From Escherichia coli (lineage in GTDB: Bacteria; Pseudomonadota; Gammaproteobacteria; Enterobacterales; Enterobacteriaceae), in the NCBI RefSeq assembly GCF_022846255.1, contig NZ_AP025682.1: DNA of 64,000 bases. One strand, written 5' to 3'. Numbering within the stretch: the stretch's first letter is position 1; every line of letters begins with the position of its first letter. The translations under genes and the position numbers were made by a program. Positions 4,637 through 27,130 of this stretch are shown piece by piece. The notes beneath the pieces are model-generated. The model was given only the letters and a program-made list of their open reading frames with translations. It was not told the DNA's origin and searched no databases.

Positions 4637-7005
<2,369 letters not shown>

Positions 7006-7278
7006 TGGTTTGGTCAGCATAGCATCATGTTGTGCGAATAAACACCTGCTATTTTAATATTTGTTACAGTTGCTAAACACGCTGACGCAGGGCGGCGAGA
7101 AAAAGAGAAGTTACTGGCTGGTGGAGGATTAGGTGGTGAAATAAAAAGGCCGTTGGGTTACTCTTCAGGCAGTTAAATGGGCATTTCTACACAGATAATG
7201 CGATGTTCAGATTCTGTAGACTTATAATGATAGATAATGATCCGTCTACAGCATGACAAACAAAAACAGATGCGTTAC

Positions 7279-7306
7279 GGAACTTTACAAAAACGAGACA
7301 CTCTAA
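7279..7306 (+). promoter_or_regulatory. sigma-E-type promoter upstream of rpoE (rpoE P2-like)
   Basis: GGAACTT, 16-nt spacer, TCTAA; about 83 bp upstream of the rpoE ATG. Confidence 0.7.
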
Positions 7307-7388
7307 CCCTTTGCTTGCTCAAATTGCAGCTAATGGAGTGGCGTTTCGATAGCGCGTGGAAATTTGGTTTGGGGAGACTTTACCTCGG

Positions 7389-7964
7389 ATGAGCGAGCAG
7401 TTAACGGACCAGGTCCTGGTTGAACGGGTCCAGAAGGGAGATCAGAAAGCCTTTAACTTACTGGTAGTGCGCTATCAGCATAAAGTGGCGAGTCTGGTTT
7501 CCCGCTATGTGCCGTCGGGTGATGTTCCCGATGTGGTACAAGAAGCTTTTATTAAAGCCTATCGTGCGCTGGATTCGTTCCGGGGAGATAGCGCTTTTTA
7601 TACATGGCTGTATCGGATTGCTGTAAATACAGCGAAAAATTACCTGGTTGCTCAGGGGCGTCGTCCACCTTCCAGTGATGTGGATGCCATTGAAGCTGAA
7701 AACTTCGAAAGTGGCGGCGCGTTGAAAGAAATTTCGAACCCTGAGAACTTAATGTTGTCAGAAGAACTGAGACAGATAGTTTTCCGAACTATTGAGTCCC
7801 TCCCGGAAGATTTACGCATGGCAATAACCTTGCGGGAGCTGGATGGCCTGAGCTATGAAGAGATAGCCGCTATCATGGATTGTCCGGTAGGTACGGTGCG
7901 TTCACGTATCTTCCGAGCGAGGGAAGCTATTGATAACAAAGTTCAACCGCTTATCAGGCGTTGA
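7389..7964 (+). CDS. rpoE: RNA polymerase sigma-E factor
   Basis: 191 aa from the internal ATG (MSEQLTDQVLVERVQKGDQKAF...). Confidence 0.95.
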   Translation: MSEQLTDQVLVERVQKGDQKAFNLLVVRYQHKVASLVSRYVPSGDVPDVVQEAFIKAYRALDSFRGDSAFYTWLYRIAVNTAKNYLVAQGRRPPSSDVDAIEAENFESGGALKEISNPENLMLSEELRQIVFRTIESLPEDLRMAITLRELDGLSYEEIAAIMDCPVGTVRSRIFRAREAIDNKVQPLIRR

Positions 7965-17748: not shown

Positions 17749-17954
17749 TTACCGTTAAATCATTTTAAAAATCAGTAAGTTGTATCGAGTTTGTATGCTT
17801 TACTGTCATTAACTTACTGTATGTTGATCCAGTGTATTTAACCTTGATAAACTCAGTCCAGTAACACAAAGCCGCAACACATTGCATTTTGTCCCGTAGA
17901 AAAGACTTGTATGTGTGTGCTTGTTTTCTGCGCCTACGCAGATAAGGATTGAGA

Positions 17955-19352
17955 ATGCCGCGCACTGTAACACATAATCCGGATAGCCCCAATAATGACG
18001 ATGTTTTAGCCGCATCTGAAAAATGGGACGCCTGTAAACCCCCCTATACCAGCGCACACATGAAAATCTGTGTTGCTGCCGCCAAAATCATCCTCGCTGC
18101 TTCCGGCGTGGCTCGCCGTTCCAAATACGAAAAAGAGAACTATCTCCGTATCGATTTCAGCAAAGCCGGTAAGGTTACATTTTACGCCGAGTTTCCAAAA
18201 AAGATGGGCCTCAAAGGTAAAAAGCTCGGCGAGTGGCCGGAGCTCGCTATCCAGCTGGCGCGCGAAAAAGCGCTAGGTATGGCTGACGGTGGCCTGCGGG
18301 CAGAGTCCGTACATGCAGCGCTGGAAATGTACCGGGATGACCTCAAAGCCAAAGTCGCCCGGCAGAAGCTGAGCCCGGACAGTTTCACAACCTACGGGGT
18401 GCGTATCGACCGGATTAAAGCAACGTTCGGCGAGCGCGAGGTGTTCAGCGACGTAACATACAATCGGCTGGTGGAAGTGCTGGACGAGTGGATCGCTACT
18501 CGCTCGAACAATAACGCCCTGGAGTTGTTTGCCGAGCTCCGTCGGTTCTGGAAGTTCTGCGCACCTACTCTTTGCAACGGCCGCAATGTTGCCGCCAGTC
18601 TGCCAGATGATTATGTTTCCTCCCGCGTACAGAAACCTACCCCCACACGGCTTTTTACCGATATTGAATCAATCGCCCGACTCTGGCTCAATGTTGCTGC
18701 CTGCACCTCTGTACACCAGAAGAATGCTGTTCGCTTCATGATCATCACTGGTGTTCGTCCGATTAATGTCCATAACCTGCGCTGGGACTACGTTCACGAG
18801 GAGGCTGGTGAAATTGTTTATCCGGAAGGGGTTATCGGCATGCGAGGGGCTATGAAAACACAAAAGGCTTTCCGCCTGCCGATAACCCCTGAGATCCGGC
18901 GGATTATCGACGAGCAGAAAGCCTGGCGTGATTCAGTTCCTGAGTGCAACAGGGATTATGTATTTTTGCAGCCACGTGATCCAATGCAGCCATTTTCAAA
19001 ACGATCACTGGATAAGCTGGTGAAAACATACAGCCCGGACGGGGCTGTAAAAGGAATAAAACATGATGGGACTGTTAAAGGGAAAGACGGTGCATTTAAT
19101 ACGATGTGCCGTAAATTCCTTAAGAGCAATGTTATTGCCTTGATGAAGGAAAGAGGCTATTCCCGCTCAGACCGAAGGGAAATCAGCCTCCTTTGCCTTC
19201 ACCACTCCAGCAAGTCAGATGACCCGATGGCAGAACATTACGACTTTTCTGATGAGATTTTACAGGAAGAGATTGCGTTGAAGCGCGAAGCTTTCGAGGC
19301 TCACGAGCGGAGCATACTTGCGCAGGTGGCATTGCTACGGCGGCGAGGTTAA
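17955..19352 (+). CDS. phage integrase (divergent tyrosine-recombinase-like)
   Basis: 465 aa from the internal ATG with AAGGA Shine-Dalgarno (ORF-track start 17949 is TTG); position beside attL; candidate catalytic R/H/Y residues in the C-terminal half. Confidence 0.65.
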   Translation: MPRTVTHNPDSPNNDDVLAASEKWDACKPPYTSAHMKICVAAAKIILAASGVARRSKYEKENYLRIDFSKAGKVTFYAEFPKKMGLKGKKLGEWPELAIQLAREKALGMADGGLRAESVHAALEMYRDDLKAKVARQKLSPDSFTTYGVRIDRIKATFGEREVFSDVTYNRLVEVLDEWIATRSNNNALELFAELRRFWKFCAPTLCNGRNVAASLPDDYVSSRVQKPTPTRLFTDIESIARLWLNVAACTSVHQKNAVRFMIITGVRPINVHNLRWDYVHEEAGEIVYPEGVIGMRGAMKTQKAFRLPITPEIRRIIDEQKAWRDSVPECNRDYVFLQPRDPMQPFSKRSLDKLVKTYSPDGAVKGIKHDGTVKGKDGAFNTMCRKFLKSNVIALMKERGYSRSDRREISLLCLHHSSKSDDPMAEHYDFSDEILQEEIALKREAFEAHERSILAQVALLRRRG

Positions 19353-19549
19353 TACTGGCTGCGACATTTTTGAATAAAAGCGTCGATATTTCGGCGCTCA
19401 TAACGAACTACTTTTGCACTGAAACGAATTGGTGCCAGGATAGCCCGATGACGATGCTTAATATTCCACTCACATAGCGTTTTCTGTGTAATACCTAACT
19501 TTTGGCATACTTCATCCGGGGTGAGTAAATCGTCGGGTTTCTCGCTCAT
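19349..19549 (-). CDS. AlpA-like excisionase / DNA-binding protein
   Basis: 66 aa (LLTPDEVCQKLGITQKTLCEWNIKH...); convergent with and 4 bp overlapping the integrase 3' end. Confidence 0.6.
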   Translation of the reverse strand: MSEKPDDLLTPDEVCQKLGITQKTLCEWNIKHRHRAILAPIRFSAKVVRYERRNIDAFIQKCRSQY

Positions 19550-20940
19550 GCTATACCTCTCTTTTTCATGGCATCGAGCAGGATGTCCTGCACTGTTCGT
19601 TTTGAGTTGCGCCGCTCCATCACCATTTCATCCATAGTGTCGGCAGCAATAATGTGGTGAATAAATACCGGACGATTGTGTCCGGCCTGTATCTGCCTGG
19701 TGGGGCCGATACGTTCAATAATTTGCTGATATTGCTCCAGGTCCCACCAGTGTGAGAAAAATACCAGTATATTTCCGCCGTCCTGCATGTTCAGGCCGTG
19801 GCCCGCGCTGGCTGGGTGTGCAAAGAGAACAGGAATCTTTCCGGAATTCCAGTCGCGCAGTGTCTGTGGATCCTGGTCGAGGTGACGACCGCGAGGGAAT
19901 GCTTTAAGCAAGCGTTCAAGATCGTGTTTCCAGTGATAAGCAACCAGCACAGGTGCGCCAGCTGCTTCGGTCAGTATGCTGTCCAGCGCCTGTAGTTTGG
20001 TGTCATGCAGTTCTGACCAACTTCCGGTGTCATCTGTGTATACTGCGCCGCTGGCGATTTGCAGACACTTCAGTGTCTTTGCCGCGGCGTTCGGTGCTTC
20101 GATGCCTTCGCCATTCAGCTCGAGGAACATTTCCTTTTCCATTTCACGATACTGCTGACGGGCCTTCGGTGGCATATCCACGCGGATTACGTTATGGATG
20201 GGGTCTTTGATATCGAACCAGTCGGCCGCATCCAGCGAGAGGGTTACATCGGCTAACGCTCGCTGTATTTCACCCTGTGAGTGAGCAAAAGGCTCCAGTT
20301 TGGTCCAGCTCTGCCCCGGAAACTGTATCGAGTTGAACCAGCGTGAGGTAAACGCGCCGTAAGTGCGCCCGAGACGTTGCCCCTGGTCCACAAACCACGA
20401 TTGTCCCCACAAATCTACCAGGCCGTTCGGTGCTGGCGTACCGGTGAGATTTATCCAGCGCCGGACATACTTATGCGCCACTTTGCCCAGCGCCGCCGCG
20501 CGCTTACCACCACCGCGCAGCCGGAAGGATTTTAGCCGGGTGCTTTCATCTGGAATGACAGTACCGAACGGCCATCGTTCTCCCAATTCTTCAATCAGCC
20601 AGACAAGGTTATCGTAGTTGATGGTGAACACGCTTGCGTTGCTGTTCGTCAGCGCCATAGAGCGCGCTTTGGCATTACCAATAATTGGCTGCACCTCGAT
20701 ATTGCGCAAATGTCCCCACTTCAGTGCTTCATCCGGCCATGTGCTGGCAGCCACGCGCAGCGGCGCGAGGACCAGTGCGGGGCATGTTTCTGCCCCTGCC
20801 ATAAAGAGATCTTCCAGCGCAGTGAGCGTTGCCACGGTTTTACCCATTCCCATCCCCGCCCAGATGTTGCCGCGCAGGGTTTCGGTTTCGTGGTTGATAA
20901 TGAGATCTTGGTAGGGGCGAGGTATATATTTTGGGGGCAT
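19546..20940 (-). CDS. SNF2-family helicase-like protein
   Basis: 464 aa; GMGMGKT Walker A, DEAD-like VIPDESTRL, helicase C-terminal region. Confidence 0.7.
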   Translation of the reverse strand: MPPKYIPRPYQDLIINHETETLRGNIWAGMGMGKTVATLTALEDLFMAGAETCPALVLAPLRVAASTWPDEALKWGHLRNIEVQPIIGNAKARSMALTNSNASVFTINYDNLVWLIEELGERWPFGTVIPDESTRLKSFRLRGGGKRAAALGKVAHKYVRRWINLTGTPAPNGLVDLWGQSWFVDQGQRLGRTYGAFTSRWFNSIQFPGQSWTKLEPFAHSQGEIQRALADVTLSLDAADWFDIKDPIHNVIRVDMPPKARQQYREMEKEMFLELNGEGIEAPNAAAKTLKCLQIASGAVYTDDTGSWSELHDTKLQALDSILTEAAGAPVLVAYHWKHDLERLLKAFPRGRHLDQDPQTLRDWNSGKIPVLFAHPASAGHGLNMQDGGNILVFFSHWWDLEQYQQIIERIGPTRQIQAGHNRPVFIHHIIAADTMDEMVMERRNSKRTVQDILLDAMKKRGIA

Positions 20941-20955
20941 ATAATATGGCTCCTA

Positions 20956-20989
20956 AACAACAAAAGGCCAATTTAGGCCTTTTGTTGTT
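20956..20989 (-). terminator. 14-bp perfect hairpin between the 305-aa cargo gene and the helicase gene
   Basis: AACAACAAAAGGCC / GGCCTTTTGTTGTT with loop AATTTA; 3' arm is U-rich on the minus-strand transcript. Confidence 0.45.
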
Positions 20990-21002
20990 TTAAAAATGTT
21001 AT

Positions 21003-21920
21003 TTATAATAGTGCTGTTACTATTGCATCTTTAAAAATATTTTCTTCTTCATTTATTAAAGGTGATGACAGATGAATAATTACTTCTTTTCCTGTCAATA
21101 CTATTTGCTCGACTTGAAATCCTGCGTTGTGTAGTCTTTGGCGTAACTTTTCTAGTGCTGATTTTGATATACTAAATCCTTCACTCCTTATAGTATAACT
21201 GGCAACTCCATTTTTAATAATATCTACAGAGTTGTCAATTTCCTGCTGCGAGTAATTTTTCGGTGAGTCGAAAAATCTGGATTTTGTCGTTGCTGTTGCC
21301 CTAAGAGATATCAATAATGATTTGATATCTTTAATCTCAGATGCCAGATACTCAGTTTCTGATACTTCTTTCTGGTCTAGTTGTGCAACTTTGAAAGTGC
21401 CAAAATGTTTGAGGAATGTTGTGTATTCAGGATCAGTTACTGACTTTAAATATGTTTCTTTTATCTTGCTCGCAAGTCTTTCTTTGAATAAATTGATTGA
21501 TTGGTATCTTAAATCCGAAGGGTACTCTAAATGTTCAATTGATGAAATGTCAAAGCTATAAGGAGTGCGCTCGTCCTTAATAATTACGGTCGGTTTGTCA
21601 AATGCGAGACGCATTCCTAATTCAAACATTACATTAGCGTTTCGAGCACTTATATCGCAAACAACTATGGGGTTTTCATAAAGATTTTGAACAATTCGTT
21701 TTTGTATTACTGCAACATCATCATCTGAACTTACCAAATTTGCCTTGAATCCGGCATCATTTGATGCTTCACAAATAATGTCATGAACATTTCTCCAATG
21801 TCCAGTGGGATAACCTTCTATGTCCGCAATTGGCATAATAATGCCGCATATATGAGGTGGCATATTTTTGTTGTCTTTTACATCATCTTGGTTTATTTCT
21901 TTCGTTTGTTGCTTAGCCAT
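21003..21920 (-). CDS. hypothetical cargo protein with N-terminal TIR-like/NDT-like domain
   Basis: 305 aa; motifs ICGIIMPI, PIVVCDIS and RNANVMFELGMRLAFDKPTVII resemble the beta-strand and NV-x-FELG core of the 253-aa protein; AT-rich by eye. Confidence 0.35.
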   Translation of the reverse strand: MAKQQTKEINQDDVKDNKNMPPHICGIIMPIADIEGYPTGHWRNVHDIICEASNDAGFKANLVSSDDDVAVIQKRIVQNLYENPIVVCDISARNANVMFELGMRLAFDKPTVIIKDERTPYSFDISSIEHLEYPSDLRYQSINLFKERLASKIKETYLKSVTDPEYTTFLKHFGTFKVAQLDQKEVSETEYLASEIKDIKSLLISLRATATTKSRFFDSPKNYSQQEIDNSVDIIKNGVASYTIRSEGFSISKSALEKLRQRLHNAGFQVEQIVLTGKEVIIHLSSPLINEEENIFKDAIVTALL

Positions 21921-21935
21921 AGCTTACACAGACTC

Positions 21936-22220
21936 CTATTGTAATTTTTTGCCTAATATACATGAAAGCTCCTTACTATCCAGTACTACCACGGTAAAGC
22001 CCAGTTTTCGCAGACGTTCATGCTCGCGCAACTGATCAGGTCGTGGTGGTTTGCCTGGTGCTTTGCATTCGACAAAGACGATGCGACCGCCGGGTAGCAG
22101 AACAATGCGATCTGGTACCGAGCGGAGACCGGGAGATACGAACTTAAAGGCAACCCCGCCAGCCTTTTTTACTTCAGCGACGAGGTGCTTTTCGATTAGG
22201 TTTTCACGTTCATAGGCCAT
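21936..22220 (-). CDS. VRR-NUC domain nuclease
   Basis: 94 aa (GFKFVSPGLRSVPDRIVLLPGGRIVFVECKAPGKPPRPDQ). Confidence 0.65.
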   Translation of the reverse strand: MAYERENLIEKHLVAEVKKAGGVAFKFVSPGLRSVPDRIVLLPGGRIVFVECKAPGKPPRPDQLREHERLRKLGFTVVVLDSKELSCILGKKLQ

Positions 22221-22414
22221 TAGCTTTCGCCTTCCTGCTTTTTGCGTTTCTTCATGCAGATAGCGCAGTTCTCAGGATGGTCATGCCATTCGTCAATCCT
22301 GATACCTGTGAACATCCATTTTCCGCATAGTGATATGGCTTCCCCCGAATTAAAGAAATGTGCTTTTTTCGACAGGGCGGGGAACCCCCAACCTTTATTA
22401 TCGATATTAGACAT
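22220..22414 (-). CDS. small cysteine-containing phage protein
   Basis: 64 aa with C..C and CxxC spacing (SLCGKW...ENCAICM). Confidence 0.4.
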   Translation of the reverse strand: MSNIDNKGWGFPALSKKAHFFNSGEAISLCGKWMFTGIRIDEWHDHPENCAICMKKRKKQEGES

Positions 22415-22604
22415 CGTCCACCTCCTTACGCTTTTCGCGCATGTTCTGCATCAGACAAAAATCAAACCGACGTTCGCTTTGGCCCAGACCTGCATCGCCC
22501 GGTCGTACCCGCTGGACTGTTCAAGGCGCAAAGCCTCCCGCGCAGTCCGGTAATAAAGCGGACTGTCCCGGTATTTAAATGACATAGGGTTTTTATTCCC
22601 AAAT

Positions 22605-22625
22605 AAAAAACCCCGCAATGCAGGG
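22605..22625 (-). terminator. hairpin with U6 after the 253-aa cargo gene
   Basis: Minus-strand CCCTGC / GCGGGG stem with one G-U pair and a 3-nt loop, followed by U6. Confidence 0.4.
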
Positions 22626-22649
22626 TTGTAATCAACAATAAGGGGGTAA

Positions 22650-23411
22650 TTACGAGGAAGCGTTAGCTATTTGAGCTTGTGTAAATTCGAAACCAGAATT
22701 TTGTAACCGTTGCACTAGACGAGGAACTGTTTCACGTACATGGTCGTTGAAATTCAGATACAAAATCCCGTTAGCATCAGAAGGCTGTTCTAGGTGCTGT
22801 TTCTGAAGGATTGCTACATTGCTGCGCCCTAAGGACGAAAGAAGCATACCCATCTCGAGTACAACGTTCTGTCTTGCGCGGGGTTGGATTTCTGCTTCAC
22901 CGGCGCGCTTTGAGTATCCCATATCATCAGGTGTCAAAAGAACAATCCCGAAACGGGTAGCAGTTTGTCCTTGCCCAATTTCACGTTCAAGCTCTTCAAT
23001 AATGGTGAGTCCAGTCCCTCCCGTATTCTGCAAAATGAAATGGTCTGGTAATCCAAGTTTATGAAGGATTAGCTCAAGTTGTTCCTTTGCAGTATGGTCA
23101 TGGCCGTGAACAATGAATATCTTTTTGGGAAGCTCAGATGGCTGTTCTACGGCTAGTGGTGTTGCCGTGGGGGGCGTTCCTAAATGGGACATTATTGCAG
23201 TTTCAACATTGGGACGTTCTTGAGGGTTACCTTGAAACTGAATGGTCCGGGTGGTGTAAAGGTTAACAATTACGCCATTCGTTAAACGATAGCAGTCATA
23301 AGTCTCACGCTGTTCGTGGGAAAAATTGGTGAACCCACACTCCCTCAAAAAGTCAGGAAAAGATTCTCTCGGGTATGGATAGGTGATCGGCATTTCAGTT
23401 AGTTCCTGCAT
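22650..23411 (-). CDS. hypothetical cargo protein with C-terminal TIR-like domain
   Basis: 253 aa; KKIFIVHGHDHTAKEQLELILHKLGL and RARQNVVLEMGMLLSSLGRSNVAILQK resemble the COG4271-type TIR-like nucleotide-binding fold (from memory of motifs); unrecognised ~100-aa N-terminal domain. Confidence 0.45.
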   Translation of the reverse strand: MQELTEMPITYPYPRESFPDFLRECGFTNFSHEQRETYDCYRLTNGVIVNLYTTRTIQFQGNPQERPNVETAIMSHLGTPPTATPLAVEQPSELPKKIFIVHGHDHTAKEQLELILHKLGLPDHFILQNTGGTGLTIIEELEREIGQGQTATRFGIVLLTPDDMGYSKRAGEAEIQPRARQNVVLEMGMLLSSLGRSNVAILQKQHLEQPSDANGILYLNFNDHVRETVPRLVQRLQNSGFEFTQAQIANASS

Positions 23412-23475
23412 AAGTATTGTTCCTTTAATTTACTCGAATTCAGCATGTCGCCATAGCTCGATAAGGTGAGTTATA

Positions 23476-25551
23476 TCAATCTTTTTTGTAGTGGTACGCC
23501 TCAAAGCCGCCAGCGTTCAGCGGAATATCGGGTGCCCATTCGGGGTTAGTGGAGAGAAGCGCGGAAAGCGCTTTATCGTTGAAATCTTCTGTGTCTGGTG
23601 CTTCGGTGATCACCTCGTCGTGTACCGTTAGCACAATGCTGTAACCGGCACCCTCGATCAGCGGCATGTTTCTGGCCAGAACGTCGCGGGCGGCCGCCTG
23701 GGTGACGTTCTCCACCAGCTTTCCGCCGTAGGTTTTGAGTCGTTGCCATTTACGCGAATAAGAGTTAACACCCATGTAGGTGATATTCCCTTGTTCGATA
23801 ACCGGAGACGGGTAGCATACAGCGCGTCCGGATGGTAGCTGTATGCGCAGCCACGCGCCATCACGTCGGATTTTAAGATAGCCGCAATACAATGTTTTTT
23901 GCGGTGTGGCGATTGCTGTGCGGACAGTGCGCTCCAGCTCGTACCAGAAATCGCAGGTCGCCGGGTGCGCCCTGCGCCACAGGCGCTTGAGCGAGTCACA
24001 TGCGATGAATACACGCTCGGACAGGCCAAAGGTCGACTTACGCTTAACCGATTCGTCGTACCAGCTTTTTGCCTCGCGGATAACATCGCGGGGAATGTTT
24101 GGCAGTGCGGCGTTCGCCAGCTCGTCGAGATCGAGACCGTAAACCAGAGCAAAAGTGATGAAAGCCGATACACCACCTCCATAACCCAGACCGAGTTCCA
24201 TGACTTTACCGATCTGACGCATGTGTTTATCAACATCATCTGGTGCAATATCGAAAGCTTTTGCATACGCCAGTTTATATAAGTCCGGACCCGTTCCAGC
24301 GTCATACTCTCTGAATGCATTCAGTTTCCATTCTTCTCCCGCCAGCCATGCCAGCATACGGCCTTCAATGTTTGACAAGTCACTTACCACTAGTTTTTTG
24401 CCTGTTGGCGCGATAATGCAGCCACGTAACGCTGAACTGGTTAGTTCCATGATATTGTCAAACAGCAGGTCTGCACATCCGGCTTTCAGTGCTTCGATGC
24501 CTTCGTCTATTTGTTCCTGTTTTAGTGAAGGGCGGGGAAGGTTCTGGGGCTGGAATAGCCGTCCGGCCCAACGACCGGTACGTGACGCCCCGCAGAACTG
24601 TAGCGTACCGCGTAAGCGCCCGTCGTGGCTTACGCCTTTCATCAGTGCCTTGTATTTACTGGTGCTGGTAGTACTGGCTTGCAGGCGGATAGCCAGCAGT
24701 TCTTTCACGGCAGATGATAAATCGGGGTCGGCCATACGACGTTCCAGGGTACTGCGTTGCATGTCTGGTAGCTCCACACCGTAGGATTCAACGATGTGCT
24801 TAATCAACGCGTCCCGTTGTGTGGCTGCCTGCACTTCGCCATCAGTCATTTCCTGTGTACGCTTTGCTAGGCGCTTTTGCTCCTGGTCTACCGCTTCGAT
24901 CGCAGCGCGCGCGAGTTGCATGTCCATGCAGACGCCCCGGTCGTTGATCTGCTGATCACGATGCCAGAGCGCCAGCTCTGTCCCCTGATAATTCCACTTC
25001 GGCAGACGTTTATAGACTTCGCGCATTGCCTCGATATCCAGTCCGGCGTAAGCAACAAAGCGCCGCCATTCTTCCGGGTGGGTTTTGCTGGTGGCACGGC
25101 GCAGTTTGCTGTTTTTCGGGCGGGGCTTACAGAACAGCTGGATCAGCGCTTTACCTTCTTTGTCCTTCGCTTTGTCTTGCGGGACGCCGAGTATTTCGCA
25201 GAGTTCCCCCAGAGACCCCGGGAGACCGTGCGCCAGCGCCTGCACCATTGTGTCTCGCCAGCGTTTGGCGCTACCTGCAACAACGCATTGGGGAGTGTGC
25301 AGCAATGCATGGCGCAACATGGTGCGATCGAAATGGCTGTTGTGTGCATATATTAGTACGCTCTCATCGCTGAGAGCTGTCAGTAGTCGTGTCGGCAAGT
25401 TATAGTCTGTGGTTAAATCGTGTACGCTGACGGGGTCTTCGTCGATTGCCCATGCGAATAACATGATTTCGACTCCTTCTGCATAGACATGGGTGCCGTT
25501 TTTTATTGGGATTTCGCTGAAAGTTTCGAGGTCTAACCAAAGTTTTTGCAT
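23476..25551 (-). CDS. family A DNA polymerase (PolA-like, exonuclease + polymerase)
   Basis: 691 aa from the first ATG ([13 protein letters not shown]... exonuclease-like); the ORF-track start at 25593 is TTG and lies inside the upstream hairpin. Confidence 0.8.
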
Positions 25552-25627: not shown

Positions 25628-27130
25628 TTAATATGATAAATAATCATACAAGCATAAAAGTCGCCTGTATTGGGTATCAATTTTATGCCCTGGTTTTGTT
25701 AAATAATCTCGTAGTTGTTTCAATGAAATAGTATCGTTTAGTACGCAATACATAATCGTGTTAGCAACTTTATACTCTTTCGTTTCTTTTAGTATTTCAT
25801 CAATAGACACAGCCTCACTCTTACATGTTTTAATTCGAGAAAGGTTACCAATGATTTTATCTAGCTGCCGTTTTCTGTATGTCTCGGTATTTTCTAGTTC
25901 AGGGCAGATAGAACTAAAAGCGTATATTGGAAAGTGTTCGCTATTAGCTATGGTTTGCTTATTCAGTAATGCGATAAGCTGAGAGTTTGCTTCGTCAACT
26001 ATTTTAAAATAGTTCTGTATCATTTCAGATTTTGTTTGATAAACATATTGTACGGTTCTTTCTGAACCAACAGCAATGACCATTTCATCATTGCGAAGTT
26101 CATCTAAATTTTCTGTAATTTTAACCTTTATCTCACCACCACTTTTGATGGTACTCCAAACTTTTTGAACCTTTCTTATGTCCATTGCGGATACTGGCAA
26201 AACTAGTCCCGAGATGGCATCATATACAGCTTTGTAATTGTTTGTTTTTATTTTGTTTATTCTTATGATAGACATGCCTTCTATATCTATGTCATGCTCC
26301 GTAATTTCAGTTGACATGCTGTCTTTTTCGTATTCAACCAAAAGAAAATTATCTTTTATCCTTTTTGCAAGTTCGGTATTTAAGTCAACGTATGAGAATA
26401 TGGTTTTTAATAAGTACTTAATGTTTTTATCGCTAATACTATACCCTATAAATATGATAGGGTTGTGTATGAATATTGAGAGTAATTGAGCGCGAATTAA
26501 CTCATATTTATTGTCGAAGTTTGCGTAGTCTTCACCTGTGATAATTATGTTGTTAGGATCACTAACACAGCCATGTATTTTGTAAACTGAACCGTATGGG
26601 TTACTTAAAAGAATGTTATTACCAATCAGTGGGTTAAATTCGAAGATGTTCTCTACGAGTTGGTCGTAGTTTGTTGTAATGATGGAGCCTATGTTTTTTC
26701 TTGTTTTTATTAAGCTGTTTATTTCCTCCATCATTGACTCTTTTATCTTTAGGTCTTTAAGTATTGAAGTTAAATAAATTTTGAATCGACTTAGTTTTTT
26801 TCCTTTTTTCATGTGCTCATAGAAAACATCATTGATGTCTTTGAACTTACCGTTACGATCTTCTGCCAGCTTTTTATTAAAAATATCTTCAAGTTTTGTA
26901 GCTAAGATATCATATCGATAGTCGTCACCTTCTAGGCTTTCAGCTTTCAAATCGTAGTAAAACTCAGCATTACCGGTTAGTTCCATTGCGACACTCAAAA
27001 GAAGACCATCCCAGCTAAATGAGTTTTCTAGATACCGTAGGCTAAATCCTGTTCCAATGAATAGAACAGGGTGGTTTTTATAGTGACTTACAAACTCTTG
27101 GATTTCCATACCGATTCTCAAAGTTGACAC
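25628..27130 (-). CDS. SIR2-like domain protein (SIR2_2 / ThsA-type N-terminus, unknown C-terminal domain)
   Basis: 500 aa; LFIGTGFS, ITTNYDQLVE, KIHGCVSDPNNIIITGEDY and PIIFIGYSISDKN align by eye with the ThsA SIR2 motifs; GTG start with AGAGG Shine-Dalgarno (alternative ATG at 27109); AT-rich. Confidence 0.7.
   Translation of the reverse strand: MSTLRIGMEIQEFVSHYKNHPVLFIGTGFSLRYLENSFSWDGLLLSVAMELTGNAEFYYDLKAESLEGDDYRYDILATKLEDIFNKKLAEDRNGKFKDINDVFYEHMKKGKKLSRFKIYLTSILKDLKIKESMMEEINSLIKTRKNIGSIITTNYDQLVENIFEFNPLIGNNILLSNPYGSVYKIHGCVSDPNNIIITGEDYANFDNKYELIRAQLLSIFIHNPIIFIGYSISDKNIKYLLKTIFSYVDLNTELAKRIKDNFLLVEYEKDSMSTEITEHDIDIEGMSIIRINKIKTNNYKAVYDAISGLVLPVSAMDIRKVQKVWSTIKSGGEIKVKITENLDELRNDEMVIAVGSERTVQYVYQTKSEMIQNYFKIVDEANSQLIALLNKQTIANSEHFPIYAFSSICPELENTETYRKRQLDKIIGNLSRIKTCKSEAVSIDEILKETKEYKVANTIMYCVLNDTISLKQLRDYLTKPGHKIDTQYRRLLCLYDYLSY

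Follow-up and report, generated by a model that had tools for sequence, protein, structure and literature searches.

A variable cargo gene of an Escherichia coli prophage encodes a candidate single-protein immune effector with a TIR-like/NDT-like domain

We propose that a gene for a 305-aa protein in an Escherichia coli prophage is a 'moron' providing single-protein anti-phage defence of the abortive-infection type, in which NAD+ or nucleotides would be cleaved when the protein is triggered; we put the probability of this reading at about 0.5. The gene lies in a 64,000-nucleotide stretch of DNA (the window), which is E. coli chromosome with a prophage inserted beside yfhL/shoB, and occupies positions 21003..21920, stop codon included, on the minus strand. 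It has an ATG start, and its product is a 'hypothetical protein' in RefSeq (WP_001551510.1). The open reading frame is as described in a first-pass annotation of this DNA, down to the peptides quoted there (ICGIIMPI, PIVVCDIS and RNANVMFELGMRLAFDKPTVII).

The gene is embedded in the leftward early operon of the prophage, which has the order DUF2800, DUF2815, DNA polymerase, VRR-NUC (21936..22220), 305-aa gene, SNF2 helicase (19546..20940) and a small HTH protein; the prophage integrase is encoded at 17949..19352. It starts 15 nt after the VRR-NUC gene and is co-oriented with this replication operon. An AGGAG sequence 12 nt upstream of the ATG (21933..21937, minus strand) is Shine-Dalgarno-like, as read from the sequence, and overlaps the TAG stop codon of the VRR-NUC gene. 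A scan for a promoter belonging to the 305-aa gene returned 6 promoter-like sites against 5.8 expected from shuffled sequences, none of them significant.

Together with a spacer and a 3' hairpin, the gene makes up a variable cargo cassette (20946..21935, minus strand) placed between the start of the SNF2 helicase gene (20940) and the stop of the VRR-NUC gene (21936). The 305-aa gene is AT-rich, as had been remarked before: its GC content is 0.33-0.36, whereas the SNF2 gene has 0.52-0.58 and the region of VRR-NUC ~0.50. The 1.1-kb region is present at an identity of at least 99.8% in 23 of 5,426 complete E. coli genomes, one of the 23 copies being interrupted by IS1, and the induced phages vB_EcoM-689R2 and vB_EcoM-611R5 encode the protein with 100% identity. 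Only 23 of the 156 E. coli genomes with the SNF2 gene of this prophage carry the cassette, which bears out the earlier description of the gene as cargo. In the prophages that lack it, homology ends at ~20945, ~5 nt past the start of the SNF2 gene, and picks up again at ~21936, the VRR-NUC stop.

Other genes fill the same VRR-NUC|SNF2 slot elsewhere (loci L007, L008 and L101-L104). The alternative cargo includes a 195-aa multi-pass membrane protein, a DUF6338 protein with an 86-aa ORF, a Dcm methyltransferase with a 106-aa ORF, and hypothetical proteins of 236 and 265 aa. In strain 93_0495, the slot holds a 310-aa protein that matches BstA from end to end (PADLOC, 1.4e-115). BstA is an experimentally validated prophage abortive-infection protein. 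It resembles the 305-aa gene in its presence in this slot in a sister prophage, in its occurrence in the same Vibrio cassette array (see below) and in being single-gene prophage cargo, but it is an HTH/KilA-N-type DNA-binding protein unrelated to the 305-aa protein in sequence and fold. The prophage in the window has two further variable slots, both with AT-rich genes. One encodes a 253-aa protein (22650..23411) with an end-to-end match to PADLOC PDC-S35 (1.3e-108), and the other a 500-aa SIR2-like protein (25628..27130) with an end-to-end match to PDC-S25 (4.1e-158); PDC-S35 and PDC-S25 are candidate defence systems in PADLOC. The prophage in the window therefore has three cargo cassettes, of which the 305-aa gene is one, and its slots behave as defence hotspots.

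The 3' end of the cassette is marked by a perfect hairpin located 12 nt past the stop codon (20955..20990, minus strand), recognised from the sequence and by RNA folding. Its arms, AACAACAAAAGGCC at 20956-20969 and the reverse complement at 20976-20989, form the 14-bp stem previously reported as bounding the gene, to which one more A-T pair can be added, giving 15 bp with a 6-nt loop. Folded as coding-strand RNA, it has a free energy of -25.9 kcal/mol (z = -5.4), and 0 of 200 shuffled sequences were as stable. Directly after the stem comes AGGAGCCATATTAT-ATG, that is, the ribosome-binding site (an AGGAG Shine-Dalgarno sequence) and the start of the SNF2 helicase gene. The layout of A-tract, GGCC and T-tract is like that of a bidirectional terminator; a scan for consensus terminators passed over the hairpin, because the T-run sits inside the stem. 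Rfam returned no match over 19000-24000, so that the hairpin is not a known RNA family, and its arms do not recur elsewhere in the window as a repeated element. It is probably a weak, possibly bidirectional, terminator or an RNA-stabilising stem. Since a downstream stem of at least 8 bp is present in only 7 of 63 homologous loci, and is absent from the relatives in the same slot (L023 and L027), the hairpin is specific to this E. coli allele and is an accessory of the cassette, neither a trait of the family nor a part of the system.

The protein belongs to a large family. A phmmer search against 1.84 billion representatives clustered at 50% identity retrieved 4,823 clusters at E<=1e-3, of which 909 remained at E<=1e-30, with nearly all members 250-330 aa long. 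Members labelled in UniProt span Proteobacteria, Bacteroidota and Bacillus, mostly under the name 'RNA helicase' and in a few cases as 'nucleoside 2-deoxyribosyltransferase'. The helicase name was rejected: the protein has neither helicase motifs nor a helicase fold, and the name is merely repeated across the UniProt entries of the family. We found no paper covering the family, searching by accession, by the PDC names and by NDT-like/TIR-like together with prophage, nor a Pfam family (no precomputed Pfam domain is recorded), an NCBIfam model (305-aa protein and 10 diverse homologues) or a PADLOC system; PADLOC-DB v2.0.0 gave the 305-aa protein no full-length system-specific match, only a partial match to a TIR effector. 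PHROGs placed it in the unknown-function families 3634 and 10872 only, and PDB sequence searches with the protein and with the family profile yielded no relevant relative.

Conservation was assessed from an alignment of 59 diverse family members (alignment A1). The sequences are strongly conserved from residue 24 to ~205, followed by a C-terminal region that is barely alignable. There are 26 invariant positions, among them G26, P30, H41, W42, D89, S91, N94, N96, V97, M98, E100, G102, R104, D108, T119, F123, D124, Y133 and L137; at least 90% of the sequences share P134 and D136. The two-part architecture given in the first-pass annotation is therefore retained with different boundaries: the conserved N-terminal region comprises ~180-200 aa, not ~150, and what had been taken for an unknown domain of ~160 aa amounts to ~100 variable residues divided into a helix, a linker and a 75-aa alpha/beta domain.

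The N-terminal domain (residues 23-180; 21381..21854, minus strand) adopts a TIR-like/NDT-like flavodoxin fold with a family-specific extension. In the AlphaFold2 model of the protein (mean pLDDT 80), it has a flavodoxin-like beta-alpha-beta organisation with strands at 23-28, 58-62, 85-89, 111-116 and 130-133 and a long helix at 139-162, and it can be superposed on NDT, Rcl or MilB. The highest structural similarity was to MilB, a CMP/hydroxymethyl-CMP hydrolase of the NDT superfamily (13.0), followed by Cap12 TIR-STING (12.6), the plant TIR domains of RPS4 and RRS1 (11.4 and 11.0), Rcl/DNPH1 (10.3), two NDTs (10.3 and 10.1) and the CRISPR-associated TIR protein Cat1 (10.1). Because generic flavodoxin folds such as receiver domains also score ~10 against the model, the fold assignment rests on the ranking of these matches combined with the sequence evidence.

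Both of the resemblances previously suggested for this domain, to NDTs and to TIR domains, were recovered. On the NDT side, Pfam PF05014 (Nuc_deoxyrib_tr) matches residues 78-125 of the 305-aa protein insignificantly (E 0.2, 12.2 bits), and among the 59 homologues it matches 22 at E<=0.1 and 3 at E<=1e-3 (best 1.2e-4); as far as profile matches go, this shows remote relatedness to the NDT superfamily, not membership of it. A glutamate in the E-x-G helix-start motif of NDTs is present, E100 and G102 being invariant in the 59 sequences. The catalytic triad of NDTs consists of Tyr, Asp/Asn and Glu, with the Tyr at the end of strand 1 (PMC12884076). No conserved Tyr is found in residues 23-45 of the alignment (as opposed to a superposition), where the invariant residues are G26, P30, H41 and W42 and the consensus after strand 1 reads CGIIMPISxIDGxPxxHW. 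The family thus differs from the NDT-superfamily hydrolases (MilB, DNPH1/Rcl and DmtZ; PF05014), which have the triad Tyr after strand 1. The 305-aa protein is also larger, with a ~180-aa core and a ~100-aa tail, and its family is mobile and solitary whereas those enzymes are metabolic or biosynthetic. An hhalign comparison with the small NDT-like protein of the phage family itself (DUF4406, in locus L007) revealed no relationship, with a probability of 0.8%. Homology to a phage enzyme with a defined part in replication, which the first-pass annotation had named as evidence against its own interpretation, did not turn up.

On the TIR side, the PADLOC model of a CBASS 'Effector TIR' (PDLC00733) matched all 11 members tested, the 305-aa protein and 10 diverse homologues, with E-values from 1.6e-3 to 7.5e-8; the match is limited to the TIR part of the model (positions ~256-376 of 388). 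Pfam PF10137 gave no significant match (E 0.22). The motif NV-x-FE-x-G, said earlier to be common to this protein and its 253-aa neighbour, is real, and an hhalign comparison with the PF10137 family of the neighbour (alignment A2) gave a probability of 24% (E 8.3e-4, 32 columns). The only segments aligned are NVMFELGMRL/NVVLEMGMLL and HLEYPSDL/HLEQPSDA, separated by an 11-residue insertion in the 305-aa family, and BLASTP between the two proteins found nothing beyond the motif. The proposed kinship to the TIR-like domain of the neighbour consequently stands at the level of the superfamily, but the protein is not a second copy of it.

This alignment identifies candidate active-site residues. 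The predicted catalytic motif of the 305-aa protein is N94-A-N96-V-M-F-E100-L-G102 (21615..21641, minus strand; E100 codon at 21621-21623), and a 'PxD' motif follows, Y133-P-S-D136-L137 (21510..21524, minus strand). In the neighbour, N96..E100 corresponds to N182..E186 and P134-S-D136 to P210-S-D212, and its family aligns in turn to solved TIR-STING proteins and PycTIR (RDNVVFEFG ... LPTDLDG in SfSTING, 7un8). In SfSTING, R78 and N80 bind the substrate, E84 is catalytic and D110, in a P-T/S-D motif, completes the active site from the partner subunit (PMC9402430). Chaining these two short alignments, N94 would correspond to R78, N96 to N80, E100 to E84 and D136 to D110; at all four, the 305-aa family is invariant or almost invariant. 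We conclude that the domain is a distinct family in the TIR-like/NDT-like assemblage with a signature closest to the CAP12/PycTIR type, and that it probably needs subunit assembly for activity. By the HMM criterion, it is a member of neither PF10137 nor PF05014.

The C-terminal part begins with a long helix of the pattern KEVSxxEyl..E... (residues 185-208; 21297..21368, minus strand), the last segment conserved family-wide, which the model places at 188-208 and continues with a low-confidence linker (209-229). The remaining residues, 230-305 (21006..21233, minus strand), form a small, compact domain modelled with pLDDT above 90. We describe it as ACT-like or ferredoxin-like, its modelled order being beta-beta-alpha-beta-beta-alpha and the ACT criterion being a ferredoxin-like beta-alpha-beta-beta-alpha-beta with a ligand at the dimer interface. 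This domain evolves fast: three relatives with core identities to the query of 92, 90 and 85% have tail identities of only 49, 40 and 34%. The tails of distant members resemble one another in the arrangement of their hydrophobic strands and amphipathic helices, and in one homologue, P0127, an RNA polymerase alpha-CTD domain (Pfam, 7.2e-11) replaces the ACT-like domain. A profile of the C-terminal region (A3) retrieved nothing at E<=0.01 from 5.8 billion proteins, because the domain is too short and divergent. The rapid divergence would suit a recognition module engaged in an arms race; it could also reflect relaxed constraint.

Relatives of the gene are encoded on 159 viral contigs in IMG/VR and occupy a variety of positions. 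Some take up the same VRR-NUC|SNF2 slot in prophages of a diverged Morganellaceae type (L023 and L027), others lie inside another replication module in the opposite orientation (L089), in the nin region of lambdoid prophages or, in one phage clade, immediately ahead of the terminase genes. In the Streptococcus phage Javan306, the homologue lies on the lysogeny-oriented side of the immunity region and points with the lysogeny genes. Outside phages, homologues adjoin integrase, resolvase or transposase genes in islets; one belongs to an integron-like array of short co-oriented cassettes in Vibrio parahaemolyticus, which also contains a BstA_C protein, and one on a metagenomic contig lies in a defence island beside PLDc_2, TIR_2 and GmrSD_N genes. 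Several contexts are devoid of any known defence gene. Some of the prophages that carry a homologue encode Acb2/Tad1-like proteins elsewhere. Across 79 viral loci, no neighbouring family was conserved beyond one phage clade (14 loci at most), and the gene therefore acts alone or with non-adjacent partners. The upstream neighbour is on the same strand in 64 of 78 viral loci.

Comparison with known systems sets the family apart while indicating a common logic. The CAP12/PycTIR proteins (PF10137; SfSTING and PycTIR) have active-site residues, N80, E84 and D110, with apparent counterparts in the 305-aa family, and their NAD+ glycohydrolase activity depends on ligand-driven oligomerisation. The 305-aa family differs from them by the 11-residue insertion, DERTPYSFDIS, which contains the invariant T119, F123 and D124, by an insertion of ~10 residues before helix A, and by the ACT-like tail in place of a STING, SAVED or cNMP-binding sensor, the signal-binding domains of CBASS and Pycsar; there is no partner cyclase either. 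No CD-NTase or pyrimidine cyclase gene, nor any other neighbour, is conserved next to the homologues in the 79 viral loci and 13 other contexts inspected for membership of CBASS or Pycsar. The likeness to the retrons Ec86 and Sen2 lies in their NDT-like N-terminal domain, part of a toxic anti-phage effector that depends on its dimer or oligomer state; the NDT-like effector of Ec86 acts in anti-phage defence (10.1101/2023.08.16.553469). In contrast, the 305-aa gene has no reverse transcriptase or msDNA partner, and its C-terminal lobe differs. PADLOC, which should include models of retron effectors, gave no retron family for the 305-aa protein or the homologues tested. A parallel for the mechanism proposed here is Swarozyc (DUF4062), a single-protein TIR-like NADase with accessory domains that is activated by the phage portal and that was itself recognised recently by remote homology. 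Pfam DUF4062 was absent from the matches even at E<=10, and Swarozyc is a different family with different accessory domains.

We suggest the following mechanism for a defence function. The N-terminal domain would be a TIR-like/NDT-like N-glycosidase with E100 as the catalytic residue, and N94 and N96 would hold the ribose and phosphate of the substrate. D136 would reach the active site from the adjoining subunit of a dimer or filament, such that the enzyme would be active only when assembled. The helix at 185-208 and the fast-evolving ACT-like domain may hold the enzyme in check until they detect a sign of infection, be it a phage protein or a small molecule. The protein would then assemble and destroy NAD+ or a nucleotide pool, and phage replication would be arrested. 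Judging from the residues of the SfSTING type, NAD+ is the most likely substrate, and nucleotide monophosphates are possible because of the similarity to MilB and Rcl.

Three other functions have to be weighed against this reading. The protein could be a phage nucleotide-pool enzyme, an N-glycosidase or transferase of the NDT superfamily acting on NMP/dNMP like DNPH1/Rcl, MilB or the DmtZ of Z-phages, which would serve the replication of the phage itself or destroy a modified nucleotide such as hm-dCMP, with the ACT-like domain as an allosteric ligand-binding module. We consider this unlikely, given the consensus CGIIMPIS...HW after strand 1 in place of a conserved triad Tyr, the dispensability of the gene for the phage family (23 of 156), the homologues located away from replication genes in integron-like arrays and islets, and the occupation of the slot by BstA in a sister prophage; moreover, a housekeeping allosteric domain is not expected to diverge so fast. 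Still less probable is a counter-defence function, in which the protein would hydrolyse or sequester immune signals (cADPR isomers, cyclic oligonucleotides or cyclic mononucleotides) or pre-empt NADase systems of the host. Such a role would suit a gene that phages encode in early regions, mostly in early-gene orientation (the 64 of 78 same-strand neighbours), an N-glycosidase fold could cleave nucleotide signals, and some of the prophages concerned have the Acb2/Tad1-like genes mentioned above. Against it, the family is also found in cassette arrays, in transposase/integrase islets and in a defence island without phage genes, the 305-aa gene is accompanied by defence candidates in its own prophage, and a TIR-type site apparently completed in trans together with a variable, sensor-like tail resembles immune effectors rather than sponges or phosphodiesterases. 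Lastly, the protein might lack catalysis and use the TIR-like fold for protein assembly only, as a scaffold or regulator such as a superinfection-exclusion or transcription-linked factor; this would be in keeping with the many TIR domains that act as adaptors and with the RNA polymerase alpha-CTD domain of P0127. We regard it as very improbable, because strict invariance of the Glu motif and of D89, S91, N94, N96, E100, R104, D108, T119 and D124 among members this distant is what an active site typically shows, as opposed to an interface.

The context favours host or prophage defence over counter-defence. In support of a defence function we count the cargo status and low GC content of the gene, BstA in its slot and PDC-S35 and PDC-S25 in the neighbouring ones, the TIR-effector matches, the active-site counterparts, the solitary distribution on mobile elements and the fast-evolving tail, together with the precedents of TIR-like/NDT-like effectors in CBASS, Pycsar, retron Ec86 and the DUF4062 system Swarozyc. 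We count against it the location in an early replication operon with no significant promoter of its own, which puts expression in the lysogen in question, the homologue contexts with no known defence genes, the insignificant Pfam matches (E 0.2) and the 24% hhalign step.

More tentatively, the gene may be the founding example of a very large, so far unrecognised family of single-gene immune effectors, with at least 4,800 clusters at 50% identity in Proteobacteria, Bacteroidota and Firmicutes, in which a TIR-like/NDT-like N-glycosidase completed in trans is combined with a diversifying ACT-like sensor, is spread by prophages, integron cassettes and islets, and is re-targeted by C-terminal swaps. 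Neither the superfamily nor the probable design, in which a prophage encodes a TIR-like effector coupled to a sensor, is new; Swarozyc/DUF4062 and the NDT effectors of retrons are recent parallels, and the candidate, which is testable, would not surprise a specialist. If the nucleotide-metabolism reading were true, the family would represent a new class of regulated N-glycosidases in phage replication modules. If the defence reading is true, thousands of genes now annotated as 'RNA helicase' or 'hypothetical protein' would be reassigned to a defined immune family, the known TIR-like effectors would be joined by a compact one of a single gene, 0.9 kb long, with a new sensor module, and a common E. 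coli prophage family would have defence hotspots to mine for more systems, in its VRR-NUC|SNF2 slot and in two others. With its conserved enzyme and hypervariable tail, the protein would also lend itself to work on how recognition by one domain turns on a TIR-type active site that is completed in trans.

Most UniProt entries of the 305-aa family found among the AFDB50 matches carry the name 'RNA helicase', and one is called 'ATP-dependent RNA helicase HrpA'. We reject this identity: neither sequence nor fold supports it, and the name is thus apparently an erroneous annotation that recurs through the entries of the family. In one member, P0127 (locus L100), the C-terminal domain of the RNA polymerase alpha subunit (Pfam, 7.2e-11) stands in place of the ACT-like tail, an arrangement that suggests that the C-terminal module of the family is exchangeable. 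Another member, P0105, is encoded in Vibrio parahaemolyticus (loci L015/L016, positions 7001-7822) inside a long series of short ORFs that share one orientation and have ORFs of ~30 codons between them, with a BstA_C-domain protein encoded ~4 kb downstream; the layout resembles the cassette array of a chromosomal integron. Closer to the prophage under study, the gene for the 305-aa protein is interrupted by an IS1 element in E. coli JNEC-KY203 (NZ_AP045179.1; L105, 1105-2799), one of the 23 cassette-carrying genomes. The insertion leaves fragments of 272 and 47 aa and may hint at a fitness cost.

The neighbouring cargo gene (22650..23411, minus strand) encodes a 253-aa TIR-like protein of the PDC-S35/PF10137 type (PADLOC, 1.3e-108), and a canonical intrinsic terminator, AACCCTGCATTGCGGGGTT followed by TTTTATTT (22609..22627, minus strand), lies 23 nt past its stop codon. 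The N-terminal ~90 aa of the protein bear a faint likeness to the N-terminal repeat of the RnlA/LsoA toxin (PDB 5hy3, E 0.17), and one homologue, P0370, has PF15935 as a second precomputed Pfam match. Between the VRR-NUC gene and the 253-aa gene, RefSeq annotates a frameshifted ANR-family regulator gene (~22407..22585, minus strand), as it also does in strain WP3-W18-ESBL-08 (L001, 13508-13686); this frameshift annotation coincides exactly with the prophage alleles bearing TIR-like cargo. In allelic prophages without the 253-aa gene, a small gene for a DUF4406 (NDT-like) protein adjoins VRR-NUC (L007, 5153-5452; L103, 3431-3730), and hhalign detected no relation between this protein and the 305-aa family (probability 0.8%).

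The AT-rich cargo genes include a third one (25628..27130, minus strand; GC about 0.32), located between the genes for DNA polymerase and DUF2815. Its product, a SIR2-like protein of 500 aa, matches the PADLOC candidate defence model PDC-S25 end to end (4.1e-158) and ThsA more weakly. In strain WP3-W18-ESBL-08 this position is instead taken by an oppositely oriented gene (L001, 16687-17316) for a hypothetical protein of 209 aa.

The slot between VRR-NUC and SNF2 is a defence hotspot, since in E. coli 93_0495 (NZ_CP074800.1) the same slot is occupied by a full-length homologue of the prophage abortive-infection protein BstA (L103, 2245-3177; PADLOC, 1.4e-115). Four other occupants are unannotated, namely a multi-TM protein of 195 aa, a DUF6338 protein and two hypothetical proteins of 236 and 265 aa; none of them matches a PADLOC model, and they could be further defence candidates.
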